Sequence record: MK327933.1
Strand: one strand, 5' to 3'
Length of the DNA stretch: 64,000 bases
From: Escherichia phage vB_EcoM_G2285
Position numbers and translations under genes: made by a program. Positions 6,160 through 49,277 of the stretch are shown piece after piece. The first letter of the stretch is position 1. The number at the start of each line of letters is the position of its first letter. The notes below the pieces were generated by a model. The model saw nothing but the letters and a program-made list of their open reading frames with translations. It made no database searches and was not told the origin of the DNA.

Positions 6160-6180
6160 AAAGGTATTCTATCGTCCGAA

Positions 6181-6208
6181 ATCTAAAGCAAAAAGGGCCG
6201 AAGCCCTT
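6181..6208 (-). terminator. rho-independent terminator
   Basis: minus strand AAGGGC-TTCG-GCCCTT followed by TTTTGCTTT; overlaps stop of upstream ORF. Confidence 0.6.
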
Positions 6209-18731: not shown

Positions 18732-18792
18732 GTTAATTTCCTCTTGATTTGTTATGTTTATAGTATCTTGTTTTAACTTTGGTGTAAACCAA

Positions 18793-24760: not shown

Positions 24761-25476
24761 TAGTCAAGGAATCCTTTAACATAATCAAAATCACGTTCAA
24801 ACACATGGGCACTTACCATGGTATGAGTATAATCACCAACTTCTACACCACATTCGTTAGCGATATAATGAAGTAATTTTCCTTGGAGATAAAAATCCAA
24901 CTGCATAACAACAGCACAGTTCTGGGAACGCATATGACAGTGGGTATAAAGCTTACCATCACGAATATAATAAGTCACTGAGTCAGTACATGGATATTCA
25001 AGCGTTTCGTCCGAATCAAGCAAAGCCTGATCAGAACTTTCTAGAATTTGGAACACAACTCTTCGAGAGTTAGGCTTCTCTTTAAGTTCTTTTAGAAGAG
25101 CTGGTAATTGGGCCGCAATGCGAGGACCATAGAAAGTGTTGAAGTTTGCCGGCAAAACATCTGATTTTGGTTTAGAAATAAATTTAGCGACATTAGGATA
25201 TGCCTTAAACGCTTCTTCTGCGTTGGTACCACCAGAAATCATAAACTTCCAGAAGTCTTCGGCATATTCATAAGAGATGCGGTTAATACGTGGGTCGGTC
25301 ATTTTGAATGATGATGGAGTGTCAACAACTACTGTCATAGACCCAATTTCATTACAACGTCCAATACGAGAATCAGTTACGAATTCCGGGTTTTCTAAAA
25401 TTTCACGATTGACTGCTTTAAAGGCGGTTTGAAAATCTGCGGCTTTGATATATTTCATTGTGTTATGTTTTCCCAT
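24760..25476 (-). CDS. thymidylate-synthase-family pyrimidine hydroxymethylase (gp42-like, divergent)
   Basis: 238 aa; NSRR, YPCTDS (catalytic Cys), HMRSQN blocks of TS/dCMP-hydroxymethylase fold; N-terminal half unlike recalled T4 gp42. Confidence 0.6.
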   Translation of the reverse strand: MGKHNTMKYIKAADFQTAFKAVNREILENPEFVTDSRIGRCNEIGSMTVVVDTPSSFKMTDPRINRISYEYAEDFWKFMISGGTNAEEAFKAYPNVAKFISKPKSDVLPANFNTFYGPRIAAQLPALLKELKEKPNSRRVVFQILESSDQALLDSDETLEYPCTDSVTYYIRDGKLYTHCHMRSQNCAVVMQLDFYLQGKLLHYIANECGVEVGDYTHTMVSAHVFERDFDYVKGFLD

Positions 25477-26915: not shown

Positions 26916-26972
26916 TTTTTTTGCATCTCACGTTAATTGACGCGATGGTTTTTGCAGGTCTTACTTAAATTA

Positions 26973-27374
26973 TTATAGATTCGGTTTATACGATTTAAAT
27001 GTTTCGAATTCGCCTTTATTCATAAGAGCTTTGAATTCGTCAGGACGCATAGCTTTGTCGTCGATAATCCAATCATATACTGGTTTATGTGTTAGCAAAT
27101 TATGGTACTTCAAACCAATGTTTTCCAAGTTCTGAATCAGACTTGGGAGAATGTCAATTGCTATACGACCAGGACCTACTGACTTCATACCGCGAGCAGT
27201 GTAAAGCGTTATGGTATGCCCTGCATCATACAGGGCATTAATGGCAGACACCATTTCGACGTCAGGTTTGAAGTTCACGTAATCACGATTGTTATTCCAC
27301 TCTGTTATACAATCATCGACATCAAAACAAAGATTAAGCATGTTTTCTACACGGTGCATTAGATTCGTTCCCAT
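26973..27374 (-). CDS. HAD-superfamily phosphatase
   Basis: 133 aa; motif I LCFDVDDCIT (DxDx[TV]) near N-terminus; alternative start 27359 overlaps upstream stop. Confidence 0.6.
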   Translation of the reverse strand: MGTNLMHRVENMLNLCFDVDDCITEWNNNRDYVNFKPDVEMVSAINALYDAGHTITLYTARGMKSVGPGRIAIDILPSLIQNLENIGLKYHNLLTHKPVYDWIIDDKAMRPDEFKALMNKGEFETFKSYKPNL

Positions 27375-29044: not shown

Positions 29045-29085
29045 GTTGAAGTCCTCATTGGTAAGTAGGAGTATTGTACACTATT

Positions 29086-29229
29086 CTAGTTAAAGCATTC
29101 ATACTTTGCTTGTAGTCCAATCATAATCCATCCAATCACAAGTGTTGGAATCATTACCGGAGCCGTTAAGCTCCAGTAGATAGTCATGAAAAGCATCAAT
29201 AGTAAAAGTCCTATTGTTATTGCTTTCAT
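29086..29229 (-). CDS. 47 aa hydrophobic membrane peptide, absent from ORF track
   Basis: hand translation MKAITIGLLLLMLFMTIYWSLTAPVMIPTLVIGWIMIGLQAKYECFN; ATGA overlap with upstream stop. Confidence 0.4.
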   Translation of the reverse strand: MKAITIGLLLLMLFMTIYWSLTAPVMIPTLVIGWIMIGLQAKYECFN

Positions 29230-29861
29230 TGTTCGCCTCGTAACATGGCACCTAGTGCACCGCCTGGATGGAACTTAAGGAAGTCATTAGAGGTAAATCC
29301 ACGTTCAGACGAAAGGTTGATAGCAAACGTATCGATAAGCGCTAACAACAATGTAGTTGACATCGTCGGAGCTAAAGAGTTCTCGTCAACTTCTACCGCG
29401 ATACCGGTACAGAACGTATAATCAAAAAGAGCTTCGTATTCTTGTGGAATGTCTGGGTTACAATGCAACAGAATCTGTTTGACGTTCGGACGAATCATTT
29501 TAAGATGCTTAGCCACGCCTATCATTTCTTCAGTCTTACCAGAACGACTGATGTGAACTAATACATCATTAGGTGCAATAAATCCTGCATCACCGTGAGA
29601 ATAATGCCCAGTGTTCAAGTACATACTCGGGATACCGAGTGAAGCAAATGTCTCAGAAGCTTTAGTTGCGATATTAGCATTCTTACCAACACCTGTAATA
29701 ATTACTCGGCTTTCATAATTACTAAGTCCAGGGCGTCGAAGAGTTTCTAGAATAGCATTATAACGAGCAGGGTTTTGACTAATTACTTCGGCCATAGTGG
29801 CCAAAGAAGAAGCTTGTTTTATGATTGCGTCAATAGCGATAGTAATAGGAGTAGTTTTCAT
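29226..29861 (-). CDS. SIS-domain sugar-phosphate isomerase (arabinose-5-phosphate isomerase-like)
   Basis: 211 aa; ITGVGKNANIATK, HGDAGFI, ISRSGKTEE, APTMSTT, FHPGGALG match KdsD/GutQ SIS-domain blocks. Confidence 0.7.
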   Translation of the reverse strand: MKTTPITIAIDAIIKQASSLATMAEVISQNPARYNAILETLRRPGLSNYESRVIITGVGKNANIATKASETFASLGIPSMYLNTGHYSHGDAGFIAPNDVLVHISRSGKTEEMIGVAKHLKMIRPNVKQILLHCNPDIPQEYEALFDYTFCTGIAVEVDENSLAPTMSTTLLLALIDTFAINLSSERGFTSNDFLKFHPGGALGAMLRGEQ

Positions 29862-29901: not shown

Positions 29902-30905
29902 TCAAAAATCGAACATATCGAACAGAGATGCTTTCTTCTCGTAATCGAGTTTCGCTGCTGATGTGAATCCTTCAAGTGGTTTAATAAATGTCTTCTCAAG
30001 GAGAACAGTGTAGTCCATCCAATGAAGTACATCGTCTTTAATTAAATCTGTGATTTCAGTACCAGAAGGCCATGCGATACATTTATCACCGAATGGGTTT
30101 CCTTCACGTAAAGGCAGAACATATACTTTTTCACCTTCTACAACTTGCGGTGCATCGATATTACCTTTGATAGCCCGGTTATACGTCAGAATTCCACGAA
30201 TATGGAACGGGCATTTAGGACCAGGGAATCCACCGACGTCATATTTAGCAATGTTATTCGCAGAAGATACCGACGCGATGCTAATATAATTCAATTGACG
30301 GAATTCTTTTTCAAACTCTTTAAAATATTCTTGTAATGATTCTTCGCCTTCCTGAAGCATACGACGAATACATTCCTTAAGAGCTTTCTGTACTGCTTTA
30401 GGAGTCGAAGATTTCTGAGTCTCTAGACCCATGATTTTAAGCTTAGGTTCAGCGTATCTGGTTCCTTCCATATCCCACACGTTTAATGCATAACGTTTCT
30501 TACCAGTCCAGAATCCACCAATACCTTTAGAACCAAGCGGAGGACCAGCAATAGCTTCTCGGTCCATGAACATCAAATGTTGTTTATTGTTCATGTATTC
30601 ACACATTTCACGGAAACCTCTATCAATAGCTGGTTCCATACGTTCACGTGCAAACTTATCTAAGAAGTCTACCCAATGGTTGGTATCACGGAATTTAGAT
30701 TCACCAACCTTATCAATAATTTTATCTGCAGATACGTAAATGGAGTCTGTATCACCATAAAGAACGAAAGCTTCACCTTCTGTACCACAAACTTCATTCA
30801 GATATTCATTAACTTTACGTTCAATCCACTGTAAAGCCATTTGACCAAATGTTGTGATTGCAGTAGCATTACGCAAATCGTAATAACGGAACCAAACGTT
30901 ACCCA
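29902..30905 (-). CDS. 43: DNA polymerase gp43, cistron B exon 2 (palm/thumb, YGDTDS)
   Basis: translation from GNVWFRYYDLRNATAIT through YGDTDS to ..FDMFDF matches recalled RB69/T4 gp43 C-terminus; 5' boundary set at inferred splice site. Confidence 0.85.
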
Positions 30906-31137
30906 CATTATGTTCGACTGAGGTCGTTAATCTCAGCCCGGAATTATATCCAGCTGCATGTCGCCATGCAGAGCAGACTATATCATCATCTTTATAGATG
31001 CTATGCGCTTCCACCCACTTGGGCGTACTCCTTTCGGATAGTCGTTGCACGTTCCTCATAGAGGCTTCGCTCAGGATTGTCTACTAGAGATGTCCCCTGA
31101 ATTCACATAGTTTAAAGTGCGCCGAGTTATTTGGTTA
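30906..31137 (-). ncRNA. group I intron (td/nrdD-like, ORF-less, 232 nt) in gene 43
   Basis: interrupts motif B codons (..LYGAL | GNVWF..); core elements CTCTAGTAGACAATCC and GATATAGTCTGCTCTGCATGGCGACATGCAGC; starts TAA after exon U, ends ..CATAATG. Confidence 0.75.
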
Positions 31138-31306
31138 ACGCACCATACAGACTATTAATAAGCAATTTACGGTTAATCTGAGCCGTATTACCTGCTACTT
31201 CAGCCAATTCGCAGTTTTTAAGATGTTGTTCTAAATCAGCTTTGCTTAAGGACTTGAGATAAGAAATTTCATCTTGTGAAAAGTCTTGAGTGTATGTTAA
31301 ATTCAT
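31138..31306 (-). CDS. 43: DNA polymerase gp43, cistron B exon 1 (motif B)
   Basis: ATG overlapping HEG stop (TAATG); encodes MNLTYTQDF..NTAQINRKLLINSLYGA, the polymerase K-x3-NSxYG region. Confidence 0.7.
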
Positions 31307-32127
31307 TATATTTTATTCCTACAGTTATCAAAGTGCCAACGTTTCATACCAGATAATATACCTTCTTTACCACAGTGCGGACACGTTGCTTTAATCTCTT
31401 TAGCTTTAGCCCAGTATTCTTTCTTAGAGTCTGAAAGGGCCTTATTATGGGCTTCCGAATTGGTTTTGCCTAATCTTGTTTTAACTATATTAGGATTCTC
31501 TGAAATTCTTTGCTTCATCCTAGAAGACTGTTTAGAACGTTGTTCTTTCGACCAGCCATCAGATAAAACTTTCTTTTGTTCTTCAGTTTTGGTTGTACCG
31601 AAGAGATGGGATTTATTTTTAGAATAGTATTCTTTGAGACCTATAGATTGTTTTAACGAAGTTTCAGCAGAATGCTTTGTTCCTATTTTATTTTTACTTG
31701 CTACAGCCCAATTGGCTGCTGCTATGGCTTTATACTTTTCAGGATTTTTGGCTATAGTGATTTTAATAGAATCTGAAACCTTTTTAGCAATCTCTTGGGA
31801 CTTCATAGGATTTGGTAGATTTAAAGAATTTACATAATCCCAACCGCCTTTACCACCAGGATTAAGATTATATGTATCATTTCTTTTTACAAAATCTTTA
31901 TCTACAATTTTAGCTTCAAGGGCATAAGCTTCATCTTCATTATCGAATACTTCCAAAATGGTCTTTTGGAGATTTTCTATACCGTATTTTTCAACGGCTG
32001 CTTTAACAACAGGTCCAGAACCGCGGTAAATATCGTTTTGATTAGACTCATCACACTTATGAACACCTACATAAATTTTACCATTAACGACATTAGTAAT
32101 TTGGTAAACAGTATAAACAGTTTTCAT
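31306..32127 (-). CDS. GIY-YIG homing endonuclease inserted within gene 43
   Basis: VYQITNVVNGKIYVGV GIY-YIG motif; C-terminal CPHCG..MKRWHFDNC zinc finger; start set at ATG with SD GGAGG. Confidence 0.75.
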   Translation of the reverse strand: MKTVYTVYQITNVVNGKIYVGVHKCDESNQNDIYRGSGPVVKAAVEKYGIENLQKTILEVFDNEDEAYALEAKIVDKDFVKRNDTYNLNPGGKGGWDYVNSLNLPNPMKSQEIAKKVSDSIKITIAKNPEKYKAIAAANWAVASKNKIGTKHSAETSLKQSIGLKEYYSKNKSHLFGTTKTEEQKKVLSDGWSKEQRSKQSSRMKQRISENPNIVKTRLGKTNSEAHNKALSDSKKEYWAKAKEIKATCPHCGKEGILSGMKRWHFDNCRNKI

Positions 32128-32153
32128 AATATCCTCCATTAGTTGATAAGACT

Positions 32154-32183
32154 ATAATACCACATCCTTGTGGTATTGTAAAC
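32154..32183 (-). promoter_or_regulatory. early-type promoter for the intragenic endonuclease
   Basis: minus GTTTAC-N18-TATTAT then AGTCTTATCAACTAATGGAGGATATTATG. Confidence 0.45.
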
Positions 32184-33703
32184 TATTTTGAAGCCAAAAT
32201 CTCTTTAATTATTTCAGCATTTCGCTGTGCAGCCAACATGTAGCGCTTATGTTCTTTACGCTGCAAGAATACCTTAGTGATTTCTGTTGGAATCACACCA
32301 TCACGGTCTTTATAATACATCATGCCGTTAGGAGAGCAACTGTACACATCTGAAGGACGTTCGGCGATTGCGTTAATATACTCATGCAGTGGAGCTACTT
32401 TAAACGTTCCTGCTATTGTTTCCGGGCTAATATTCACTTGGCGAATAATACTTGGATACAGAGATGTAAGGTCGAAACTCATTACATATTTGTATCGATT
32501 TGGAATAGGTTCCTTAACAAAAGCGCCAGGATAAGGTTGAACCGGGTGAGAACGACCTTGTGGAATCACCTTGTTCTGCTCTTTAAGGCTATTAAAAATA
32601 ATAGCATCCCATGTTTTAATTGGGCTAAACACAGATTGAATCTGTATCTTAGCATAATAACCCATGTCCAAGCTCAAGTTGATGAACTGACGCTTAGCAT
32701 CAATTTGCAATACACGATACACGTCGATAATGTTATAAGAAATATATCGTTGGTGATTGCTTTCACGAAGCTTAGAAATAGGGCCGTCATATTTCAGTTT
32801 ACCAACGTTCAATTCAAATTCTGAAATGTAATCCAGAGAATATGACGGTTGATTGGTAAAAGAGAATTTTTTGTAAAGGTCAATGTAATCAAGAACAGAG
32901 ATACCGAACAATGTAATGATTTCACGAGAACCATACATGTTTTCGATAACTTTAACACGAGTTTTACGATGTGGTGACAACCGTTTTGCTGTGGATTCGC
33001 CAAAAATATTCTTGATTCGGTTATACACATATGGAATATCAAATGACTCAACGTTCCATCCAGTCAAAATGACAGGAGTTTTCTGTTGCCAGAAGTTGAG
33101 ATATTCCATCAACAATTCTTTTTCGTTATCGAACGGCATATAAATGATTTTATCGATAATTTCAGATGGAACTTCATCACCGCCTTGTTCTTGAAGCTTA
33201 GCAGCGATTTCAATAGACCATTCTTCTACATTACCATACGGAGAATTCAATAGATCAAATACATAGAACCTGTCGTCAATTGAGTCATAATGGGTGATAG
33301 CATCAATCGGATGTTTTGCTTGTGACGGCTCAGGGAACCCATCCGGAGATGTTACTTCGATGTCGAAGTTAGCCACACGAATTTTTGTATGGTCGTATTT
33401 GATTTCATAGTTATAAGTGTCAGACAAATACGCCAATTTGAAATCGTCCATGCCAAGTGCTTCAAGTCCGATATCTTCCATGCGTTTAATCCATTGGGAG
33501 GCATCACGCATATTAGCGAACAGCTTACGAGTACACGGCTTACCGTAGATATCGAAATATTTCGTAGCCTGACTTTCTGGACAATGAGCAAACAGTGATG
33601 GTTTATATTCTACTTCACGAGTACGTTCACGGCCATTAGAATCGATGTAACGTTCAAAAATTGAATCACCAATCTGTTCAACCGTTAAGTAAAATTCTTT
33701 CAT
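32183..33703 (-). CDS. 43: DNA polymerase gp43, cistron A (N-terminal and 3'-5' exonuclease domains, motif A)
   Basis: 506 aa; MKEFYLTVEQIGDSIFERYID..FDIEV..YNIIDV..DLTSLYPSII matches recalled RB69 gp43 N-terminal half; ends at in-frame stop. Confidence 0.9.
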   Translation of the reverse strand: MKEFYLTVEQIGDSIFERYIDSNGRERTREVEYKPSLFAHCPESQATKYFDIYGKPCTRKLFANMRDASQWIKRMEDIGLEALGMDDFKLAYLSDTYNYEIKYDHTKIRVANFDIEVTSPDGFPEPSQAKHPIDAITHYDSIDDRFYVFDLLNSPYGNVEEWSIEIAAKLQEQGGDEVPSEIIDKIIYMPFDNEKELLMEYLNFWQQKTPVILTGWNVESFDIPYVYNRIKNIFGESTAKRLSPHRKTRVKVIENMYGSREIITLFGISVLDYIDLYKKFSFTNQPSYSLDYISEFELNVGKLKYDGPISKLRESNHQRYISYNIIDVYRVLQIDAKRQFINLSLDMGYYAKIQIQSVFSPIKTWDAIIFNSLKEQNKVIPQGRSHPVQPYPGAFVKEPIPNRYKYVMSFDLTSLYPSIIRQVNISPETIAGTFKVAPLHEYINAIAERPSDVYSCSPNGMMYYKDRDGVIPTEITKVFLQRKEHKRYMLAAQRNAEIIKEILASK

Positions 33704-33780: not shown

Positions 33781-33784
33781 TGCT

Positions 33785-34153
33785 TTAATTACCAATTGTA
33801 TATTTTGCTTTCAAAGTCCAGTCATCTTTCTGTTTAAAAGAGATAACACGGAAGTTATTAGTCAGGCCAAACAGATCTTCACGAGCAGAGTCTTCAATAA
33901 CAATCAAGCCCCAGTCTTCAAGCAACTGAGCAATCGAATCACGTCGCTGATAGTCTTCACCATCAATATCAACCTGACGTCCGTCCATACGCAACATTTC
34001 TTTAAAGTGGACGATGTAGTATTTACCTTGCTTTTGGAGGATATGACAGGACTGATAAAGAACTTTATCCTTGTTATTAGCGATGCCCATACGGGTCAAA
34101 GTCTCTTTGACTTTCAGAAAATCTTCAGGGTTCTTCAATTTAATTTCAATCAT
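33785..34153 (-). CDS. regA: RegA translational repressor
   Basis: MIEIKLKNPEDFLKVKETLTRMGIANNKDKVLYQSCHILQK matches recalled T4 RegA. Confidence 0.9.
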   Translation of the reverse strand: MIEIKLKNPEDFLKVKETLTRMGIANNKDKVLYQSCHILQKQGKYYIVHFKEMLRMDGRQVDIDGEDYQRRDSIAQLLEDWGLIVIEDSAREDLFGLTNNFRVISFKQKDDWTLKAKYTIGN

Positions 34154-37765: not shown

Positions 37766-37957
37766 TTATTCGTAGAAGTCGGTAACTGTCCATGCGGAAT
37801 TGCGATTAGACATTATTTTATTATACTCATCTTTAAAAGCAGATTCGAGCATTTGTTCAGTAACAATATGTTCTTCACCTGAAAACGTATTGGTCAAAAC
37901 ATATTTTTTAATTTCAGGGACAACAAGAAGATGTTGACCAGTTGAATACTCCGCCAT
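37766..37957 (-). CDS. hypothetical small protein
   Basis: 63 aa ORF. Confidence 0.4.
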   Translation of the reverse strand: MAEYSTGQHLLVVPEIKKYVLTNTFSGEEHIVTEQMLESAFKDEYNKIMSNRNSAWTVTDFYE

Positions 37958-38034
37958 TATAAATCTCCGAGATTAAAGCAATATAAATAGGTTTATCAAT
38001 TTATCTGTTGCTGTATCAAATAAGGATTTAGTAA

Positions 38035-38751
38035 ATGAATTATAACTCAATATACGAAAAGCTTATCACCAATGCTAAATCAAGAAGTTTAGATGGTTAT
38101 ACAGAACGTCATCACATTATACCACAATGTTTAGGTGGAAGTGATGATGCTTTAAACTTAGTAGACTTAACACCGGAAGAACATTATTTGGCACATCAAC
38201 TGTTGGTAAAAATCCATCCAGATAATGCCTCTTTAATATATGCTGCTCGTATGATGACTATCTCATCTCCTAAAGCAGATAGAAGCAAAAACAAATTATT
38301 TGGATGGCTTCGACGTAAGAATCAAGAAGTTCAAAAGAACAAAGAATTCACTGCTGAAACTCGTAAGAAAATGTCCGAGTCGGCAAAAAATAAACCAAAG
38401 ATTACATGTCCACACTGCGGTTTAACCGGCACTGAAGGAAACATGAGACGTTGGCATTTTGATAACTGTAAACAAGGCCCTACGCCTAAAATAGTAAAAC
38501 TTGATCAAGAAACAAAGGATAAAATAATTAAAACCATGGCCACGAAAATTTGGAAAGAAGATTCTTGCCCGTTTTGTGGCTTAACTACTAAGTTATCGGC
38601 GTTAAAGCCGCATATAAAATTCTGTAAATCAAATCCTAACAGAAAGAAAAAAGAGGACAAGAAAATTAAATGTCCTCATTGCGATAAAATAGGGATCCCT
38701 GCTAATATGCGTCGTTGGCATTTTGATAACTGTAAACATAAGCCTCATTAA
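38035..38751 (+). CDS. HNH homing endonuclease (Mob-like) with three zinc-finger repeats
   Basis: ERHHIIPQCLGGSDDALNLVDLTPEEHYLAH HNH motif; three CPHCG/CPFCG..MRRWHFDNCK repeats; plus strand among minus genes. Confidence 0.8.
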   Translation: MNYNSIYEKLITNAKSRSLDGYTERHHIIPQCLGGSDDALNLVDLTPEEHYLAHQLLVKIHPDNASLIYAARMMTISSPKADRSKNKLFGWLRRKNQEVQKNKEFTAETRKKMSESAKNKPKITCPHCGLTGTEGNMRRWHFDNCKQGPTPKIVKLDQETKDKIIKTMATKIWKEDSCPFCGLTTKLSALKPHIKFCKSNPNRKKKEDKKIKCPHCDKIGIPANMRRWHFDNCKHKPH

Positions 38752-40436
38752 GAGGCTTTCATTACAGTAAATCGTCCAACTTTGCTCATTTGCAAATGCT
38801 GTCCATAAGCTTGTGGGTCATGGTCTCTGTGACTAATTATAAACACGTTTGCATCGGTTAGAGAGTTAAGAATTGTTGAAATAGCTTTAATACCTTCAGA
38901 ATCAGTCGCGGAATCCATGACTTCGTCCATAATTAATGTATTGATTCTAACACCAGAGACCTTTTCAGCAATATCTCGCCATGTAAACAACAACGCGATA
39001 TCAATACGTGCTTTTTCACCTTGACTAAATGAAGCATAACTGAACTCTTCACGGCCACGTGATTTTATAGATTCGTTGAATTCTTCGTCAATAGAAAACA
39101 CGTAATCAGCTTCCATGATTTTAAGATAATGGTTAATCTGCTTGTTGAACAGAGGCACATATTTTTTAATGATAGCACCTTTAATACCAGAATCTTTTAA
39201 CATATCTGTAATAATACCACGATGGTATTTTTCAAGAACGATATCTGATTTTGTTTTAATGATTTTATCAAGTTCTTTTTGAAGCAAAGCTATCTCATCG
39301 GCATGGTCGATAAATTCTGCTGAGGCTTGCTCTATTGCAGCTTTAACTTTCTTAGCTTTATCAATAGTGGCAATCATTGCTTGTTTCTTGGTACGAATAT
39401 CAGATGCAAGGTCCTGTTTAGTCTTAACATTAGCTCTATATTCGTCCACTAGGACACTCAGATTATCTCTGTGACATGTAAGTTGCTCGAATGAGTGATT
39501 ACATTCATGAAGCTTATCGGTAATCTTAGAGACAATAGGATCACCCTGGTGCAACTGTGATGCACAAGTAGGACATGTGCCACCGTCATGATACATCTTA
39601 ATAACTTTGTTATATGAGTCGATTTTAGATTTAATCAAGAATGCTTCTTGTCCTATCTTGTTGAATGCCTCAGTAGGGTCTTCGTCAAGAACGATATTAA
39701 GTAGACGCTCGTTAGCTTCTTCAATTTCTGCTTTTAATGAACGAGCTTCTTTGGCTAGGTCGTCATACATATTCTGTAGACGCGCTACATTATCACCAGA
39801 TAATTTCTTTTGACGTTCGATATTCTCGTTATAAATCTTAATTTGTTGGATAACACCATCTTTCTTGGCATCGAGAACTTGTCCCTGGGAATTAAGTTCT
39901 CGAACTTGAGACTTATTGATTTTATCCATTTCAGCGAGTGTGCCGACTTCTAAAAGGTCTTCGACAAGTTTTCTACGAGCAGGGGTGCTAAGAGCCATGA
40001 AAGGGGTATACCCTGCCGTCCCAAGCACAACGATCTGTTTAAAAGACGCGTATGACATTCCGATGCTACGTTCAAATTCTTCTTGGAAGTCACGACTGCT
40101 GGCAGATTCATCAAGACGAACACCGTCAACGGAGATTTCGAAAATATTGGGCTTTTGGCCACGTCTAATGAAGTATTTTTTATCATCGAATTCCATCCAA
40201 AGCTCAACTAAGAGCTCTTTCTTGTTCGTGCTATTAATGATTTGTCCTTTCTTAACATCACGAAATGGTTTACCGAAAAGTCCGAAAGTAATGGCTTCTA
40301 ACATCGTAGATTTACCACCGCCATTTTTACCTGTGATTAAGGTCTTTTGGACTTTATCTAATTGGATATCGATAAAATTTTGCCCAACAGACATTATATT
40401 TTTATAACGAACACGATTTAATTTAAATGTTTTCAT
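38748..40436 (-). CDS. 46: recombination endonuclease subunit (Rad50/SbcC-like)
   Basis: 562 aa; Walker A GKNGGGKST, coiled-coil middle, C-terminal D-loop region LIMDEVMDS. Confidence 0.9.
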   Translation of the reverse strand: MKTFKLNRVRYKNIMSVGQNFIDIQLDKVQKTLITGKNGGGKSTMLEAITFGLFGKPFRDVKKGQIINSTNKKELLVELWMEFDDKKYFIRRGQKPNIFEISVDGVRLDESASSRDFQEEFERSIGMSYASFKQIVVLGTAGYTPFMALSTPARRKLVEDLLEVGTLAEMDKINKSQVRELNSQGQVLDAKKDGVIQQIKIYNENIERQKKLSGDNVARLQNMYDDLAKEARSLKAEIEEANERLLNIVLDEDPTEAFNKIGQEAFLIKSKIDSYNKVIKMYHDGGTCPTCASQLHQGDPIVSKITDKLHECNHSFEQLTCHRDNLSVLVDEYRANVKTKQDLASDIRTKKQAMIATIDKAKKVKAAIEQASAEFIDHADEIALLQKELDKIIKTKSDIVLEKYHRGIITDMLKDSGIKGAIIKKYVPLFNKQINHYLKIMEADYVFSIDEEFNESIKSRGREEFSYASFSQGEKARIDIALLFTWRDIAEKVSGVRINTLIMDEVMDSATDSEGIKAISTILNSLTDANVFIISHRDHDPQAYGQHLQMSKVGRFTVMKAS

Positions 40437-40681: not shown

Positions 40682-40916
40682 CCTCGATACACGCTTCAGC
40701 CATTTTAAGAATAGAACCAGGAGTATCGTTGTCCATTATATTAAAGCTAAATTCAATAGCCCAGTCGGTGCAGACATGAACTGCTTTAACTTCATTGCCT
40801 TCAACGCGTAATGGCTCAATCCAATACTTAATAGTGTTCTCGAATCCATCATCATCTTTAACGTCCATTTCAACTTCAAGCCTGAGTCCAGCATTGTTAA
40901 ATTCATCTAAAGTCAT
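40659..40916 (-). CDS. hypothetical small protein
   Basis: 85 aa acidic ORF. Confidence 0.45.
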   Translation of the reverse strand: MTLDEFNNAGLRLEVEMDVKDDDGFENTIKYWIEPLRVEGNEVKAVHVCTDWAIEFSFNIMDNDTPGSILKMAEACIEDAYNDED

Positions 40917-41932
40917 TGTGTTGCCTCAATATAAAGTTCGTTGGAATATTTGACCAGCGCTTCTCTGTCTTCGTCTGAGATATCTGGAATCGCGTCAATA
41001 TATTCTTTAATGATATCTTGAAGTGATTTAATCTCGATTTCCTGGTCGTCATCAGATTCAACACTGTTATCAACTTTAGAAACCATACGAAGAGAGTGAA
41101 CTACTTTTTCAAGTTCAGATTCAAACTTAGTCAACTCTGAATCAATTTCTGATACTATAACACGTACGGCTAGATTAGTATAATCAGAATAATTGATTTT
41201 GCCTTTAAACGGATAAGTGATTCGTCGATGCCATGTTGTTTCGTTAGGAATAAATTCCATACGTTCAACATCAGTGTCAAATACCCAGAATCCGCGCGGG
41301 TCGTTCTCATCACCTGCAGTAAGGGTCCACGGTGTCCCAATATATTTGACGTTAGCAGCTTCAGAGATTGTGTGGAAGTGGCCGGACCAGACTTGTTTAT
41401 AGGTCTTTAAGAAATCAGGTTCAAGCCCATGAGACTTCATTCCTTTATAGAAATAAAAGCCATTCAGTTCCCAGTGCCCAACACAATACGCTGCGGAAGA
41501 AGTCTTGATGTGCTCTAAGATTTCACCTGTATTTTCTTCACACATCCATGGAACGATATCAATCAGACATCCGTCAAAATCTACAGTAGTTGGATGTTCA
41601 TAAATAGTAAAGTTTTCAAATTGAGTTAACAATTCAGAAACAGTGTTAGGTGTTATTGTATTCTTAAACGCCATGTCATGGTTTCCTATCGTGACATGAA
41701 CGTGAATGCCTGCTTTAGAAATCATACCAACGATTTCACGATTGAATTCCATTGTACGATGTGTTATTGCTTTACGGACGTCAAACCAATCGCCGTACTG
41801 AATCCAAGTTTTAATCCCGTGTTTCTTAGAGTATTCAATTGCTTGACGAATACCATCACGTTGAATATCTTGAACCCATGGGTCGTCTTGTTTGACTCCG
41901 ATATGGAAGTCGCCTAAGTGCAAAATTTTCAT
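40913..41932 (-). CDS. 47: recombination endonuclease subunit (Mre11/SbcD-like)
   Basis: 339 aa; MKILHLGDFHIG phosphoesterase motif I, GNHD motif. Confidence 0.92.
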   Translation of the reverse strand: MKILHLGDFHIGVKQDDPWVQDIQRDGIRQAIEYSKKHGIKTWIQYGDWFDVRKAITHRTMEFNREIVGMISKAGIHVHVTIGNHDMAFKNTITPNTVSELLTQFENFTIYEHPTTVDFDGCLIDIVPWMCEENTGEILEHIKTSSAAYCVGHWELNGFYFYKGMKSHGLEPDFLKTYKQVWSGHFHTISEAANVKYIGTPWTLTAGDENDPRGFWVFDTDVERMEFIPNETTWHRRITYPFKGKINYSDYTNLAVRVIVSEIDSELTKFESELEKVVHSLRMVSKVDNSVESDDDQEIEIKSLQDIIKEYIDAIPDISDEDREALVKYSNELYIEATQ

Positions 41933-41974
41933 ATTATTTCCTCATTAGTTAATTCATTCTATCATCCGTTTATA

Positions 41975-42002
41975 AAGCAAAAAAGGAACTCCGAAGAGTT
42001 CC
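41975..42002 (-). terminator. rho-independent terminator
   Basis: minus GGAACTC-TTCG-GAGTTCC followed by TTTTTTGCTT. Confidence 0.7.
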
Positions 42003-42175
42003 TATCCACATAGTACACCGTACAGAGGCTCATTTGAACTTTTAAATCGAATGGGCTTGTATGTAATAGTTCCTTCGGCTTTAGCTTTATCATAAGACTC
42101 TTTAAAACGTCTCATTCTTTCTGCTTTGCCTTTACGGATTTTATCGAAATTTTCAGAAGTCGGGATGTTCGTCAT
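42002..42175 (-). CDS. 57 aa basic protein, absent from ORF track
   Basis: hand translation MTNIPTSENFDKIRKGKAERMRRFKESYDKAKAEGTITYKPIRFKSSNEPLYGVLCG. Confidence 0.4.
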   Translation of the reverse strand: MTNIPTSENFDKIRKGKAERMRRFKESYDKAKAEGTITYKPIRFKSSNEPLYGVLCG

Positions 42176-42214
42176 GCATAAGCACCTCTCAGAAAATACC
42201 TAAATCGATTTCTC

Positions 42215-42436
42215 TCATCGTTTCCACCATTTCTTAACTTGAAATGAATCGACCCACACGAGTTGTTTTGGGTCTGCCTTTACAATAGGCGGACAAATTT
42301 CTGTAATAGAACCGTCGTGATATTCCTTTTCAGAAATTTTAACACAAAGAGGACCTCCCAATTTAAGGGTGAACCCGGCGTTCAGCTTCAGACGTTTAAA
42401 CTTTGTTTGAACTAGCGCCATTAATGATGTCCTCAA
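42215..42436 (-). CDS. hypothetical small protein
   Basis: 73 aa ORF in the slot where T4 has alpha-glucosyltransferase. Confidence 0.4.
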   Translation of the reverse strand: MRTSLMALVQTKFKRLKLNAGFTLKLGGPLCVKISEKEYHDGSITEICPPIVKADPKQLVWVDSFQVKKWWKR

Positions 42437-42719
42437 TAGCCTGACGAGTAGTAACCCACTGGATTTTAATTAACTTGTCATTGTATGGTTGTCGTAGAAT
42501 ATCCCGAGATTTCTTAATAGCATATTCGTAAGCTTCGAAGTTGTTTTGAATTGCTGCTTCTTGAGCATGAGCATAAAGACGGTTTAGTTCAAAACGATTC
42601 TTTTTAAGAATCTTTTCGGATTTTTTACGTGCTTCAGCTTCATTTTTCTTTTGGATTTCTTGTAGCATTTTAGCTACTGCATCTTCTGCTTCTTTATTTT
42701 CAATAATCTCGGTAGTCAT
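42396..42719 (-). CDS. hypothetical protein
   Basis: 107 aa ORF. Confidence 0.45.
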   Translation of the reverse strand: MTTEIIENKEAEDAVAKMLQEIQKKNEAEARKKSEKILKKNRFELNRLYAHAQEAAIQNNFEAYEYAIKKSRDILRQPYNDKLIKIQWVTTRQAIEDIINGASSNKV

Positions 42720-42720
42720 A

Positions 42721-42936
42721 TTATCTCATTAAATTAAAATAAAAACGTCCATCCTCTTCAATACAGAACTCATACTCAACCGGAGTCCCATTTATCGAAA
42801 ATGACACGTCATGTGGGTTCAAAGGGTCGATGTCAAAATTAATTTTAAATTCACGACCCAACAGTTTTACCAAATAAGGGATTGCTTCGTCAAAAGGTTC
42901 TTCTAAGTAGTTAGAGATGTCAATTGTCATCCTCAT
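42721..42936 (-). CDS. hypothetical small protein
   Basis: start set at internal Met to avoid overlap with gp55. Confidence 0.4.
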
Positions 42937-43495
42937 ATAAAAAATCCAAACTAGGCGAATCGCTAACAACTTCCTTCTTTTCAGCCCCAGGAGCTTTATA
43001 AGCGGATTCTTCATAATGCGTCATTTTATCGTAGATGTCTTGAATAAACGTTTCATCTACCAACGCTACCATATCATCGTCATGACTGTCGTAGACATTA
43101 TGAACGAAGTAACTATATTTCTTTGCAACTTCCTTACGTTCTTTTTTGATACGTTGGACAAAAGCATTAAAACAAGCTCGAGTTATGTATGCATGTGGGT
43201 TATTGTACTTAGTTTCGTCGAAATTATGAAGTCCCTTAATAGAGGCTTCAATCCCATCTGCAATCATCTCCTGCTTCCAAGACTGGGTATATCCTGAAAA
43301 GTTGAAACGTTTGGACAGGCCTTCGGCGATAAGCATAATTGCTAAACCGATGGTATCATTCTGACGAATAATTTTGTTTGGGTCTTTATTATTTAAGAGC
43401 TCCTTTTTCCACTCGATTATGGCGGCGAGAAGCTCTTTATTATTCACATAGTTATTTTTAGGTTTTTGTTCAGTCATAAGTACCTCTTGGCTCAA
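42920..43495 (-). CDS. 55: late-transcription sigma factor
   Basis: [43 protein letters not shown] matches recalled T4 gp55. Confidence 0.92.
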
Positions 43496-43632
43496 TTCAT
43501 AGGTCTATTATATCATAATATTTAGAGACCTATCTTAAAGCACGAGATACTATCAAAGATACGTGACTTTCATAAAGTTGTCGACTTAAAATTCGCCCGG
43601 CTTTTCTTCAGTTATACTGATTCGAGTTAATT

Positions 43633-45947: not shown

Positions 45948-46418
45948 TTAATCATGTTTCCACACCCCATTGGTATTTAACCAAAGTCGCTGATTATCTG
46001 ATCCTCGCCACAGCTTTTTAGTCGGAAGATTTTTCTCATACTTCCCATCAATAATAACATCAACATATTTAAGCATTTCTAGCTGTTTAATATCTTCAAA
46101 CTTATATCCTGTCCACAACCAAATGCTTTTATTGGGATAAAGATTTTTTACTGTTTGAACAATGCAATGAATAACATCTCGGTTATCAGGATAGAGAGGG
46201 TCACCTCCGGTTATAGTCAATCCTTCTATATAATCATTATTCAAACATTCAATTAATTGTTCTAGTGTTTCACCAGTGAATGGAATACCATTTCTAGCAT
46301 TCCATGTTGATTTATTATAACACCCTTCACATTTATGCAAACAACCTGTAACGAAAAGAACGACCCTGCAACCAGGGCCATTCACAAAATCGCAAGGATA
46401 AAATCTATCATAATTCAT
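45948..46418 (-). CDS. nrdG: anaerobic ribonucleotide reductase activating protein (radical SAM)
   Basis: 156 aa; C-x3-C-x2-C motif TGCLHKCEGCYN. Confidence 0.88.
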   Translation of the reverse strand: MNYDRFYPCDFVNGPGCRVVLFVTGCLHKCEGCYNKSTWNARNGIPFTGETLEQLIECLNNDYIEGLTITGGDPLYPDNRDVIHCIVQTVKNLYPNKSIWLWTGYKFEDIKQLEMLKYVDVIIDGKYEKNLPTKKLWRGSDNQRLWLNTNGVWKHD

Positions 46419-47694
46419 TGGTGTTTAACCCTATGCATTATTTCTTTATTTTTACCGAGATTAAATCCGCGTTCGTTCGGATTTCCCAAATAACCGCATG
46501 TTCTTCTTATGGTGTTCATCTTTTTAGGATCAGTTTCTCCGCAAACTGAACAAACAAATCCGTTTTCAGTAGGAGTCATTTCATGGGTACTTCCGCATGT
46601 AAAACATTTATCTACTGGCATATTAACACCAAAATAATCTAAATGTTGTGCAGCATAATCCCATACGGCCTCAAGACCTTTTAAGTTATTTTTCATATCA
46701 GGAAGTTCAACATAAGAAATGTGGCCACCTGTCGCAATGAAATGATATGGTGCTTCACGAGAAATCTTTTCAAACGGAGTAATATTTTCTTCTACTGAAA
46801 CATGGAAACTATTAGTGTACCAGCCTTTATCAGTGACATCCTTTACACTTCCATATTTTTCTGTATCAAGTTTACAGAAGCGATAACAAAGGTTTTCAGC
46901 AGGAGTCGAATATAAACTAAAAGCAAACCCAGTTCTTTCAGTCCACTGTTTAAGATGAGCATTCATTTTAGTTAAAATTTCCTGTCCAATATCACGACCG
47001 ACAAGAATATTCAATTCATGAATACCAATGTATCCTAGGGACACTGAACTTCTACCGTTTTTAAATAACTCAATTATGTCGTCATCAGGTTTAAGACGAA
47101 CCCCGAATGCACCTTCTTGGTAAAGAATAGGAGCAACAGTCGCTTTAACTCCTTTTAAGGAACTAATTCTACACATCAAAGCTTCAAAACACAAATCCAT
47201 TCGTTCATTGAATAATTCAACAAATTTCTGTTCATTGAACTGTGTTCCAATATAAGAATCTAACGCGATGCGAGGAAGATTCAATGTTACAACACCAAGA
47301 TTATTACGTCCATCAAGAATTTCATTACCAGTCGAATCTTTCCATACGCTCAAGAAACTACGGCAGCCCATTGGAGAAACTGGAACTGAAGAACCGGTAA
47401 TAGCTTTATTATTCTTAACCGAAATAATGTCAGGATACATTCTTTTGCTTGCACATTCTAACGCAAGTTGTTTAATATCATAGTTCGGATCATCTTTATA
47501 AAGATTAACACCTTCTTCAACAAACATAACAAGCTTAGGGAAAATAGGAGTTATCCCATCACGACCAAGACCTTTAATCCGATTTTTCAGAATTGCTTTC
47601 TGAATCATTCGTTCAGTCCAGTCAGTTCCAGTACCAAATGTAATTGTTACAAAAGGCGTTTGTCCATTTGAACTGAAAAGTGTATTTACTTCAT
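46415..47694 (-). CDS. nrdD: anaerobic ribonucleotide reductase NrdD, exon 2
   Basis: glycyl radical motif RRTCGYLG and C-terminal zinc ribbon; 5' boundary at inferred 3' splice site so the join reads ..AYE-YEVNTLF.. Confidence 0.85.
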
Positions 47695-47720
47695 CATTAT
47701 ATTCAGCATGAGTCGCAAAT

Positions 47721-48491
47721 TCATGCTCGTTTATATGAAACAACAAAATTTGGATAGTCCATAGATATGCAACGTTCTTTTATAGTGCTAGGATGAAAAT
47801 TTAGCGCTTTAGCTGCTTCTATATAAGACGTATACTTAATACCGTCAACAACCACATATTCAGGAACTTTATGAATAGTAGTCTTAATACTCAAAACAAG
47901 AGGATGAGTTTCGACTTCACTTTCAGTGCAATTTAAATATTCCGCTGCTTTTTTAAAACTTCTAAAAGTTTTATTTTTAAGCTTTATCGATACTTGTTTT
48001 TTACTTTTTCGACTATTGATATTATTTTGCACATGTTCCTTAGATCTTCCGTTTTTAGCATAATATTCAGCTACAGAAGATTTTATATTGTTTTTATGAG
48101 ATTCGGATAACACTTTACCCTTATGAGCATCTCTTAATTTTTGAATATGTTCTTCAGTATCCGGATGCTTATAAAACTTTTTACCGCCTATGGATTTATT
48201 TAAACATTTTTTGCTATAAAAATATTTACGTATGACCTCTTCTTCATGTTTTAATGCATCTTTATAACTATCAAATGTTTTTAAAATTATCCATTTAGTA
48301 GGTGTATCAGTTTTTAAGCGTTCATTTATATACTTAGATGACGTTGTGTAAGTTTTCCAGTTTGTGGGCTTGTTTTTAATTGTTCTAAATTTTTTATAAC
48401 CGATATAAATGTCGCCATTAGAAAACTTAACTAAGTATGTAAATGCGTCTTTATCTTTTATTTTAGTACAACGTCTTTTTATCCATTTCAT
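47721..48491 (-). CDS. intron-encoded GIY-YIG homing endonuclease (I-TevII-like)
   Basis: 256 aa; YLVKFSNGDIYIGYKK GIY-YIG motif; lies in 3' part of the nrdD intron. Confidence 0.8.
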   Translation of the reverse strand: MKWIKRRCTKIKDKDAFTYLVKFSNGDIYIGYKKFRTIKNKPTNWKTYTTSSKYINERLKTDTPTKWIILKTFDSYKDALKHEEEVIRKYFYSKKCLNKSIGGKKFYKHPDTEEHIQKLRDAHKGKVLSESHKNNIKSSVAEYYAKNGRSKEHVQNNINSRKSKKQVSIKLKNKTFRSFKKAAEYLNCTESEVETHPLVLSIKTTIHKVPEYVVVDGIKYTSYIEAAKALNFHPSTIKERCISMDYPNFVVSYKRA

Positions 48492-48520
48492 TGTTTCACC
48501 TCGTATTCATAAGATAATCT

Positions 48521-48528
48521 TATTTATA
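48521..48528 (-). promoter_or_regulatory. T4-type late promoter TATAAATA inside intron
   Basis: about 30 nt upstream of endonuclease start, followed by SD GAGGTG. Confidence 0.5.
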
Positions 48529-48739
48529 CAAGATGACTGCTGCATGTCGCCATGCAGATTAGACTATATCTTCATCTTTCGATGCCGGCCGTTTCGAATA
48601 GCATTAGCTTCTATTCTACACCGCTACATTCATCACGGTTAGTCGTTAGGCATTTAGTTCAAAAGAACATTTAGCACGGGATTGTCTACTAGAGAGGTTC
48701 CCCGTTTAGACCGGTTTTACATGAGCCTGAATTAAATTA

Positions 48740-49277
48740 ACTCATACGCCTGGAATGCATCGTATACGTCTTTTTCTGTTTTAGATTGAGCATAATTCAA
48801 CGCATCAGCGATTTGCCATTTTTCTGCATCTTCAATATGTTTAGCATATGTGCGTTTAACATAAGGAGAAAGTACTTTATCTACATTCGCAAATGTAGTT
48901 CCGCCATACTGGTGTGAAGCAACTTGCGCGGTAATTTGTGCCATAATTGCAGTAGCAACACCGATTGATTTAGGAGTTTCAATCTGTGCATTACCTAGCT
49001 TAAATCCGTTTTCAAGCATTCCTTTTAAATCTACTAAACAACAATTAGTAAATGGAAGAGCAGGGGAATAATCAATATCGTGCACGTGAATAATTCCGCT
49101 TTCATGCGCTTTCATAATAAAAGACGGGACTATATTTTTGGCAATGTGTTTAGACACAATACCAGCCATAAGGTCCCGTTGAGTTGGAAAAACACGAGAA
49201 TCTTTATTAGCATTCTCGTTTAAAAGGTCTTTATTAGTTTTATGAATCAATCCTTCAATTTCTTTTTCAATTGTCAT
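48740..49277 (-). CDS. nrdD: anaerobic ribonucleotide reductase NrdD, exon 1
   Basis: MTIEKEIEGLIHKTNKDLL.. matches recalled T4 NrdD N-terminus; exon1+exon2 = 605 codons. Confidence 0.85.

Follow-up and report, generated by a model that had tools for sequence, protein, structure and literature searches.

The sugar on cytosine in phage RB69 is arabinose, reported in 2018 as arabinosyl-hmC (PMC6024577) and in 2026, for RB69 and DLP3, as arabinosyl-5-hydroxycytosine (PMC13326640). Arabinose on cytosine was also shown chemically for the Mosigvirus NP (PMC13390438). Both the absence of a-gt and b-gt and the arabinose-based modification in RB69-type phages are thus already established in print. Among the RB69 proteins, gp48 was shown to have 5-hydroxy-dCMP synthase activity (PMC13326640), RB69p046:47 was proposed as the first arabinosyltransferase (PMC13326640) and RB69p003/ORF003c as the second (PMC6024577, PMC13326640). 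How sensitive a phage is to type IV restriction enzymes, DNA glycosylase defences and CRISPR depends on the way its DNA is modified, and so does its ability to recombine with T4-type phages.

In T4, the 3152-base interval between genes 47 and 55 carries 47.1, a-gt (400 aa, in agreement with the first-pass annotation of the DNA studied here), mobB, and a-gt.2 to a-gt.5, with mobB located between a-gt and a-gt.2 (PMC2988022). In RB69, a Mosigvirus, RB69p066-p071 correspond to 47, a-gt.2, a-gt.3, a-gt.4, a-gt.5 and 55, as named in the phage's own annotation, which has no a-gt among them. Motifs that combine a stem-loop with a middle promoter (PmSL) are recombination sites of T4-like phages according to PMC4122927 and PMC2839356, in which such promoter and stem-loop cassettes (PeSL, PmSL) are proposed to bring about the shuffling of modules; PmSLs were described for Vibrio phage nt-1, and the two papers make no mention of RB69.

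Here, the corresponding interval was analysed in a window of 64 kb, the whole stretch of DNA taken from Escherichia phage vB_EcoM_G2285 (MK327933.1). The interval is very probably the standard Mosigvirus (RB69-type) 55-47 segment, in which the a-gt cassette is absent, the chemistry would be arabinose-based and recombination probably acted at the junction modules. Since the RB69-type chemistry is already established, the finding mainly classifies the window as Mosigvirus with arabinosyl-5-hydroxycytosine chemistry. The only element not in print, a modest one, is the junction anatomy: two copies of a hairpin and middle-promoter module in a-gt carriers and one here.

Gene content of the 47-55 interval

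The interval (41933-42919, minus strand) comprises 987 bases between gene 47 and gene 55 and contains a terminator-like hairpin and four small minus-strand ORFs. The features are as follows:

40913-41932, minus strand: gene 47 (SbcD-like recombination nuclease subunit), 339-aa ORF, downstream border of the slot
41979-41956, minus strand: MotA-box type, middle-promoter-like site TGCTTTA-N11-TAGAAT (pattern match), 5 nt past the hairpin
42003-41984, minus strand: hairpin AGGAACTC-TTCG-GAGTTCCT followed by TTTTTTGCTTT, intrinsic-terminator-like or mRNA-stabilising, overlapping the a-gt.2 stop codon
42002-42175, minus strand: a-gt.2 ortholog, 57 aa (tblastn against T4 a-gt.2: 76% identity, E 3e-24)
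42215-42421, minus strand: a-gt.3 ortholog, 68 aa from ATG (tblastn against T4 a-gt.3: 71% identity, E 2e-29)
42396-42719, minus strand: a-gt.4 ortholog, 107 aa (tblastn against T4 a-gt.4: 58% identity, E 2.5e-32)
42721-42936, minus strand: a-gt.5 ortholog, 71 aa (tblastn against T4 a-gt.5: 47% identity, E 1e-14)
42920-43477, minus strand: gene 55 (late sigma factor), ~89-91% identity to T4 gp55, upstream border of the slot

The gene 47 product aligned over its full length with T4 gp47 at 76% identity (tblastn). When all six frames were checked, the longest stop-to-stop frame in the interval had 109 codons, so no glycosyltransferase-sized frame is present. The first-pass description of the slot as holding a terminator and only small ORFs of 57-107 aa is thus correct, but the ORFs are no replacement for a-gt, since T4 carries the same four as well. 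No late promoter (TATAAATA) was found within the interval, and an Rfam scan of 41500-43600 at E <= 1 returned no RNA family.

The four ORFs are real genes, not chance frames, and are the orthologs of T4 a-gt.2, a-gt.3, a-gt.4 and a-gt.5. Three of them scored above the Pfam gathering cut-offs, namely a-gt.2 (DUF5486, E 4.5e-28, 97.3 bits, cut-off 27), a-gt.4 (DUF2654, E 1e-27, 96.6 bits, cut-off 25) and a-gt.5 (DUF5491, E 5.8e-13, 49.4 bits, cut-off 27). All four matched PHROG families, among them PHROG 2140 for a-gt.2 and PHROG 1648 (E 1.6e-34) for a-gt.3, which has no Pfam family. Their dN/dS values against T4 ranged from 0.09 to 0.24. The a-gt.3 product would be 73 aa if begun at an upstream TTG, the annotations of relatives using the 68-aa length, and that of a-gt.5 would be 97 aa if begun at an upstream ATG inside gene 55. 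Since the genes are tightly packed, with a-gt.5 overlapping the 3' end of gene 55 by 17 nt and a-gt.3 that of a-gt.4 by 26 nt, the series a-gt.5, a-gt.4, a-gt.3 and a-gt.2 is most likely co-transcribed and translationally coupled with gene 55.

Neither PADLOC nor NCBIfam gave a match for any of the four small proteins, and a literature search on DUF2654 and on a-gt.2 to a-gt.5 brought up no functional study. Within the block, conservation is widest for a-gt.4, which is present in 11 of 11 sampled lineages outside the cyanophages and has been described only as conserved and of unknown function (PMC1524935). Its AlphaFold model, built with a word-indexed homolog search that supplied only 5 proteins, is all-helical with four helices and of moderate confidence (pLDDT 74, pTM 0.46). 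Comparison with PDB folds yielded only non-significant helical matches (best E 0.63), and therefore no function is put forward for a-gt.4. A 'head maturation protease' label on a-gt.2, derived from a secondary PHROG match (phrog_17354) covering 34 residues of its 57 aa, was rejected as an annotation artefact. Likewise set aside was Emp, the hit of a preprint on the Mosigvirus AV110 in which 45 early proteins were screened for toxicity; it adjoins motA, outside the interval.

Comparison with RB69, T4 and other T4-like phages

Gene order, sizes and overlaps of the interval are the same as in RB69, from which it differs only by point differences (98.3% identity over 987 bases, 0 gaps); identity to the Mosigvirus PNJ-6 is 99.2%. 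The best-matching phage records for the 47-55 segment were all Mosigvirus, and 146 phage records covered at least 80% of a 2.6 kb 47-55 query in one piece. For gp47 alone, matches were obtained in roughly 2000 T4-like genomes.

T4 and the window have the four small genes in common, arranged in the same order. In both, a-gt.3 overlaps a-gt.4 and a-gt.5 overlaps 55, and a UUCG hairpin covers the stop codon of a-gt.2, with a GCTTTATAAA MotA box after it. In contrast, about 2.2 kb is found only in T4, consisting of the HNH homing endonuclease gene mobB, a-gt, a second hairpin and MotA-box module, and 47.1. Among 11 sampled lineages, a-gt occupied the same slot in three, represented by T4, Klebsiella phage Roth79 and Erwinia phage Cronus. 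It was absent from the slot in the sampled Dhakavirus, Kanagawavirus, Mosugukvirus, Gelderlandvirus, Tegunavirus, Krischvirus and Acinetobacter phage Ac42. For the Gelderlandvirus STP4-a, b-gt and ba-gt homologs have been reported (PMC6024577, Table 1). By itself, an empty a-gt slot is not diagnostic.

Search for glucosyltransferase genes

The window and the complete 172.6 kb genome of Mosigvirus AV111, a relative that is ~98% identical, were searched by tblastn and phmmer (--max) for homologs of T4 Agt, of T4 Bgt and of the RB14 (T2-type) beta-alpha glucosyltransferase. These searches, which include the tblastn comparison with Agt and Bgt that the first-pass annotation had proposed as a check, found no homolog in the window or the AV111 genome, the best hit (E = 0.046) covering a 69-aa stretch. 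For Agt (tblastn, phmmer), the best E value was 2.5 in the window, and that in complete AV111 was 0.046; for Bgt it was 1.8 in the window by tblastn, with nothing at E <= 1 in AV111; and for the RB14 enzyme the values were 0.85 (tblastn, AV111) and 3.3 (phmmer, window). No ORF of ~400 aa resembling T4 Agt lies between a-gt.2 and 47, none of ~350 aa resembling T4 Bgt lies between uvsX and the gene-42 homolog, and the searches gave none of ~280 aa resembling the RB14/T2 enzyme (ba-gt/TAGT, T2/T6 type).

The absence of a b-gt homolog after uvsX, also claimed at first pass, holds at the sequence level; the position itself, however, is taken up by a 299-aa protein whose GT-B fold is predicted with confidence, together with an unrelated ORF of 182 aa. 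When a 3-sequence Agt alignment was compared by hhalign with the two glycosyltransferases of the window, probabilities were below 1%. These profiles are shallow, and the null result is therefore compatible with the remote GT-B relationship described in PMC6024577.

Arabinose modification genes in the window

The following genes of the window correspond to the RB69-type pathway:

2520-3620, minus strand: GT4-like glycosyltransferase, 366 aa, RB69p003/ORF003c ortholog, rIIA-proximal (phmmer E 6e-251 to PDB 9IQZ/9IR0)
23861-24760, minus strand: GT-B glycosyltransferase, 299 aa, RB69p046:47 ortholog, between uvsX and the gene-42 homolog (the T4 b-gt position)
24760-25476, minus strand: thymidylate-synthase-family enzyme at the gene 42 position (Pfam Thymidylat_synt, E 2.3e-15)
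25755-26915, minus strand: Peptidase_U32-family protein, sugar-nucleotide set (Pfam/PHROG)
26973-27374, minus strand: phosphatase-like protein, sugar-nucleotide set (Pfam/PHROG)
27359-29044, minus strand: NTP-transferase plus kinase fusion, sugar-nucleotide set (Pfam/PHROG)
29226-29861, minus strand: arabinose-5-phosphate isomerase, sugar-nucleotide set (Pfam/PHROG)

The window contains the gene set of the RB69-type arabinosyl-5-hydroxycytosine system (gene list in PMC13326640, Table 1). Orthologs of the RB69/DLP3 pathway follow one another in the same order: a kinase-like gene, the GT-B transferase and the thymidylate-synthase homolog, then the U32-family protein, the phosphatase-like protein, the NTP-transferase/kinase fusion and arabinose-5-phosphate isomerase. 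The sugar-nucleotide set (25755-29861, minus strand) has the order of RB69p050-055 given in PMC13326640 and PMC6024577. The 299-aa ORF is intact in the window, as PMC13326640 says it should be, whereas the RB69 reference record splits it in two. Its AlphaFold2 model (pLDDT 94.6, pTM 0.89) matched GT-B enzymes in a Foldseek search of the PDB, namely UDP-GlcNAc 2-epimerases, MshA (3c4q) and sucrose-phosphate synthase (6kih), at E 1e-6 to 1e-4. The PDB entries 9IQZ/9IR0 matched by the GT4-like protein are titled 'Glycosyltransferase subfamily 4-like N-terminal domain-containing protein'; a literature search for both returned only unrelated chemistry papers.

Orthology to these RB69-type genes points to arabinosyl-5-hydroxycytosine as the likely chemistry of this phage. 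The gene-42 homolog, the ortholog of RB69 gp48 with only 25% identity to T4 gp42, would make 5-hydroxy-dCMP, not hydroxymethyl-dCMP, and no hmC glucosyltransferase would be needed. The phage-encoded sugar-nucleotide pathway would supply the arabinose donor, and two unrelated GT-B enzymes (2520-3620 and 23861-24760) would transfer the arabinose. The suggestion of a non-glucose modification chemistry is supported by the lack of Agt, Bgt and ba-gt homologs, the presence of the arabinosylation set and the published chemistry of RB69 and NP.

A predicted hairpin and MotA-box module at the a-gt.2/47 junction

The junction hairpin has an 8-bp stem, a UUCG loop (C(UUCG)G tetraloop) and the U-run tail TTTTTTGCTTT, and is by sequence a predicted Rho-independent terminator. 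Positionally equivalent hairpins with other stem sequences occur in T4, JS10, Roth79, Cronus, ZX14, PM2, TG1, G5211 and Ac42. The 96-nt junction region as a whole folded no better than shuffles (z = -0.75), only the short hairpin being conserved. The putative MotA site precedes the start codon of gene 47 by ~24 nt. Its pattern is overrepresented in the window (23 matches, 3.0 expected), and a site of this type is kept at the same junction in JS10, T4, Roth79 and TG1.

Taking a middle promoter/PmSL module as a Mot box (a/t)TGCTT(t/c)A ~12 nt upstream of a TAnnnT -10 element and preceded by a stem-loop, the 47-proximal junction is a predicted module of this kind. The hairpin would probably terminate or stabilise the gene 55-to-a-gt.2 transcript, and the MotA-box-like site and Shine-Dalgarno directly after it would restart transcription into genes 47 and 46. 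The likeness to the described PeSL/PmSL elements extends to layout and location: a stem-loop followed directly by a Mot box (TGCTT) and a -10-like box, at the very point where insertions or deletions distinguish related genomes. As the coding strand of the window (64 kb) contains only two hairpin and MotA-box modules, they are not a pervasive recombination signal within it.

Origin of the empty a-gt slot

A recent deletion or assembly artefact peculiar to the MK327933.1 genome is one conceivable account of the missing a-gt, and beyond the examination of a single window nothing favours it. The same gap-free architecture is present in RB69, PNJ-6, mar005P1, 348Ecol098PP and AV111, and the 146 records spanning the 47-55 query further argue against it; for practical purposes this account is refuted. 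Alternatively, the two GT-B genes could be descendants of b-gt or a-gt with altered sugar specificity. Both proteins share the GT-B fold with Agt and Bgt, the 299-aa gene is syntenic with T4 b-gt, and a remote relation of RB69 ORF003c to Agt-like GT4 enzymes emerged from published deep HMM and HHpred comparisons (PMC6024577, Tables 2 and 3). However, neither protein resembled Agt, Bgt or ba-gt in sequence or in shallow profile comparisons, the best structural matches of the 299-aa model are bacterial GT-B enzymes and not the T4 enzymes, and the sugar, arabinose, is a different one, as is the acceptor base, 5-hydroxycytosine (PMC13326640). Given that the GT-B superfamily is very large and a common fold is no proof of direct descent, such an origin appears unlikely.

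That some phages have a-gt at this slot and others lack it would be best explained by recombination between hairpin and MotA-box modules, with loss here or gain elsewhere, because two module copies bracket a-gt in the carriers whereas the window has a single copy. More specifically, a-gt of T4-like phages may be a swappable cassette between direct PmSL repeats, the Mosigvirus junction being the empty site with a single hybrid copy and the repeats a route for gain and loss of modification enzymes; we put this forward tentatively, as it is rather more doubtful than probable. The similarity between modules could also reflect their common function (terminator and promoter) and not a history of recombination. 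A different account holds that the slot was never occupied in the Mosigvirus lineage, that the single junction is ancestral, and that the ancestors of Tequatrovirus, the Klebsiella JD18-like phages and Roskildevirus acquired a-gt together with a module copy of its own. It is consistent with the direct a-gt.2/hairpin/promoter/47 (or 47.1) junction common to Mosigvirus, Dhakavirus, Kanagawavirus and Tegunavirus, among which the leader sequence is recognisably homologous, with the adjacency of 55 and 47 in cyanophages, and with the occurrence of a-gt in only three of the 11 lineages. Nevertheless, Agt has diverged among T4, Roth79 and Cronus (57-67% identity) about as much as the flanking gp46 and gp47 (66-70%). 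Furthermore, T4 gp46, gp47 and gp55 are closer to those of the window (82, 76 and ~89-91%) than to those of the other a-gt carriers, and these pairwise identities would, under vertical descent, place Mosigvirus inside the a-gt-bearing group. With evidence on both sides, we lean slightly against a slot that was never occupied.

If the cassette reading is true, lineages that switch to another cytosine chemistry would acquire or shed whole DNA-modification enzymes through module recombination, and the patchy distribution of a-gt across Tevenvirinae would be explained. If confirmed across many genomes, the junction anatomy would provide a concrete mechanism for the modular exchange of modification genes.

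Elsewhere, the window carries homing-endonuclease and intron insertions that are absent from its relative AV111. A mobB-like ORF is located at 38035-38751 (plus strand), and gene 43 contains a rare group I intron together with a homing endonuclease gene.

Identity of the phage

All long ORFs of the window lie on the minus strand, in the T4 early-region order rIIA, 39, ..., 41, uvsX, 43, 45, 46, 47, 55, nrdG/nrdD. When 50,697 phage records were searched by megablast with 40900-43500, the best 40 records listed, including APCEc01, PhAPEC2, JK45, mar005P1 and NicPhage, matched over the full length at 99.0-99.3% identity, and each top-matching record among them whose entry was checked was classified as Mosigvirus. 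At least 80% of this query was matched in one piece in 146 records. A 25 kb window query was fully covered by no phage record; the best was the complete Mosigvirus genome AV111 (92% covered, 97.8% identity), from which the window differs by mobile-element insertions. The near-identity to Mosigvirus records and the nature of these differences identify the window as part of an RB69-like phage.

The interval between genes 47 and 55

The interval and its borders comprise the following features.

40913-41932, minus strand, gene 47
42003-41984, minus strand, terminator-like hairpin with UUCG loop and U-run
42920-43477, minus strand, gene 55

The 987 bases separating the two genes contained four minus-strand ORFs (57, 68, 107 and 71 aa from the annotated starts) and no frame longer than 109 codons in any of the six phases, in agreement with the first-pass annotation, which had described a terminator and small ORFs only, without a glycosyltransferase-sized frame, where T4 carries the α-glucosyltransferase gene (α-gt). 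The T4 interval of 3152 bases indeed holds 47.1, α-gt (400 aa), mobB and α-gt.2 to α-gt.5, of which the window lacks only 47.1, α-gt and mobB. In tblastn, T4 proteins matched the four ORFs one-to-one and collinearly (α-gt.2, 76%; α-gt.3, 71%; α-gt.4, 58%; α-gt.5, 47%). Pfam gathering scores were passed by three of the four (DUF5486, DUF2654, DUF5491), all matched PHROG families of unknown function, and their dN/dS against T4 (0.09-0.24) lay in the range seen for gene 47. A replacement of α-gt by these ORFs was rejected, since T4 also has them as α-gt neighbours. The names α-gt.2 to α-gt.5 are already used in the RB69 reference annotation, the RB69 interval aligns without gaps to that of the window at 98.3% identity, and the interval is ordinary for Mosigvirus.

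The predicted structure of α-gt.4 comprised four helices at moderate confidence, and a fold search with this model returned no significant match; defence and NCBI family libraries yielded nothing for the small proteins, and the literature found describes them only as "conserved, unknown". Their placement, orientation and overlaps are suggestive of non-structural accessory proteins co-expressed with gene 55.

Distribution of glucosyltransferase genes

T4 Agt, T4 Bgt (β-glucosyltransferase) and the T2-type βα-gt product of RB14 were used as queries in tblastn, and in phmmer with filters off, against all six-frame ORFs of the window, and also against the complete AV111 genome (172,602 bases), a relative standing in for the remainder of this genome. 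No homologue of the three was found in the 64 kb window or in AV111, so the proposed absence of agt and bgt elsewhere was not refuted; the best match (E = 0.046, a 69-aa stretch) was dismissed as noise. Across the phage collection, T4 Agt matched 657 records, with at least 80% identity in Tequatrovirus, about 66% in Klebsiella and Raoultella phages and 56.5% in Erwinia phage Cronus, besides a few cyanophages. None of the Mosigvirus phages identified with the window was named among the 60 sampled from these 657 records.

The carriers of α-gt at this slot are T4, Klebsiella phage Roth79 and Erwinia phage Cronus (Roskildevirus). The gene is absent there from Mosigvirus PNJ-6, Kanagawavirus ZX14, Mosugukvirus PM2, Gelderlandvirus STP4-a, Tegunavirus TG1, Krischvirus G5211, Acinetobacter phage Ac42 and Dhakavirus JS10, the last of which retains 47.1, and in cyanophages 47 stands directly beside 55. 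Among the lineages sampled, a slot without α-gt is thus commoner than an occupied one, and alone it says little about the sugar used. For STP4-a, β-gt and βα-gt homologues have been reported (PMC6024577, Table 1). In this Salmonella phage an unannotated ORF (about 3861-4004), immediately upstream of gene 47 and overlapping its start codon, resembles 47.1 ("...FGRACWVGFFSTPDGFISMIL..." versus "...FTRACWIGFFSTPDG..." in T4).

Glycosyltransferases and the arabinose gene set

The following genes were located.

2520-3620, minus strand, GT4-like glycosyltransferase (366 aa), matching PDB 9IQZ/9IR0 and corresponding to RB69 ORF003c
22040-23212, minus strand, uvsX
24760-25476, minus strand, gene-42 homologue of the thymidylate synthase family, only 25% identical to T4 gp42

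The first product is nearly identical to 9IQZ/9IR0, deposited as a GT4-like glycosyltransferase (phmmer E 6e-251, all 366 residues aligned). Between uvsX and the gene-42 homologue lie ORFs of 182 and 299 aa. The 299-aa protein matched no Pfam family; its model (pLDDT 94.6, from an alignment of 44 homologous sequences) gave PDB matches to GT-B enzymes (best E 9e-7), among them MshA (3c4q) and sucrose-phosphate synthase (6kih), the same matches as reported for RB69 gp46:47 (PMC13326640). The first-pass claim that no bgt homologue follows uvsX holds at the level of sequence, but the modelled fold indicates that this position holds a glycosyltransferase sharing the fold class of Bgt. Yersinia phage TG1 has a 65%-identical homologue of this protein.

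Downstream of the gene-42 homologue, Pfam and PHROG identified a Peptidase_U32-family protein, a phosphatase-like protein, an NTP-transferase/kinase fusion and an arabinose-5-phosphate isomerase. Judged by homology, the modification genes of the window are the RB69 arabinose set, which supports the non-glucose chemistry proposed earlier. Arabinose on RB69 DNA was shown in 2018 (PMC6024577), and a 2026 paper identified the modified base as mono- and di-arabinosylated 5-hydroxycytosine and the gene-42 homologue as a 5-hydroxy-dCMP synthase (PMC13326640); Mosigvirus NP has the same chemistry (PMC13390438). For RB69 and its genus, both the confirmed observation and its supported interpretation had been described before. 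Homologues of imm and imm.1 lie at 18486-19161, before gene 41 and uvsX and beside sp and dmd; their T4 counterparts are found between genes 42 and 43, where the window has its arabinose pathway genes.

A hairpin and MotA-box module at the junction

On the minus strand, the hairpin (AGGAACTC-UUCG-GAGUUCCU) overlaps the α-gt.2 stop codon and is followed by the U-run, TGCTTTA-N11-TAGAAT, a GAGG Shine-Dalgarno sequence and the gene 47 ATG. TGCTTTA-N11-TAGAAT, a putative middle promoter, fits the MotA-box pattern; the window has 23 matches to this pattern (3.0 expected), most of them on the coding strand. In other genera this module of hairpin and promoter-like site recurs at every junction of the slot, namely the T4 junctions α-gt.2/mobB and α-gt/47.1, the Roth79 junctions α-gt.2/α-gt and α-gt/47, the Cronus α-gt.2/α-gt junction and the JS10 α-gt.2/47.1 junction, with stems that keep their pairing across genera and differ in sequence. 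In carriers α-gt lies between two direct copies, whereas the window slot has one.

Such stem-loop and promoter motifs, including a middle-promoter version, have been proposed for modular shuffling in T4-like phages (PMC2839356, PMC4122927). α-gt might likewise be a cassette exchanged by recombination between modules, and the window junction would be the matching empty site. Its single module (GCTTTATAAACGGATGATAGAAT), with a 5' end like the first T4 copy (GCTTTATAAA...) and a 3' end like the second (...CGGAGTTTGATATAAT), fits the expected look of such a site. This reading of the slot is the only new lead here, and a modest one. As to direction, two points favour a long residence of α-gt in the slot followed by loss in the window lineage: between carriers, Agt identity (57-67%) parallels that of the flanking gp46/gp47 (66-70%), and the T4 flanking proteins are closest to those of the window. 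The opposite order, with the empty slot as the old state, is favoured by one point, the homologous α-gt.2/47 leader common to several non-carrier genera.

The coding strand of the window has only one other such module (6166-6203). Just upstream of gene 43, a plus-strand hairpin at 33782-33806 (AATGGGAC-CGAA-GTCCCATT) is the reverse complement of a UUCG hairpin, and a Mot-box-like pattern then follows on the plus strand; the element probably acts as a bidirectional terminator and not as a promoter.

Mobile elements and other insertions

Gene 43 (DNA polymerase) is interrupted, with an N-terminal ORF at 32183-33703 (506 aa) and a C-terminal ORF at 29902-31059 (385 aa). Between them lies a 1.3 kb insertion (30901-32200) that is absent from AV111 and as a whole matched no phage record. 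Within it, Rfam identified a full-length group I intron (30954-31170, minus strand, 83.6 bits, E 8.5e-20), accompanied by a SegA-like GIY-YIG ORF (31306-32139). The intron core, which resembles td-gene introns of Klebsiella and Enterobacter T4-like phages, is shared only with Dhakavirus PSD2002 (93.7% over 350 nt), whose polymerase is likewise annotated as two pieces, about 218 nt apart.

A further insertion relative to AV111 (37953-38758) lies between 45.2 and 46; its 238-aa ORF (38035-38751), on the plus strand and opposite to all neighbours, resembles MobB, an HNH homing endonuclease of T4, in its N-terminal half (E 2e-22). About 1 kb at 47702-48741, missing from AV111 and located in the region of nrdD (443-aa ORF, 46415-47746), includes a 256-aa ORF (47721-48491) and is probably another mobile-element insertion. 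At 5428-6203, a 227-aa homing-endonuclease-like ORF (5476-6159; weak SegA similarity, E 0.004), directly preceded by the 6166-6203 module, is absent from AV111, where a homing endonuclease gene instead flanks gene 39 on its other side. In TG1, gene 47 has a GIY-YIG homing endonuclease gene (2723-3504 of its segment) immediately upstream; ahead of the latter stands a duplicate of the 5' part of gene 47, whose upstream leader is homologous to the α-gt.2/47 leader of the window.
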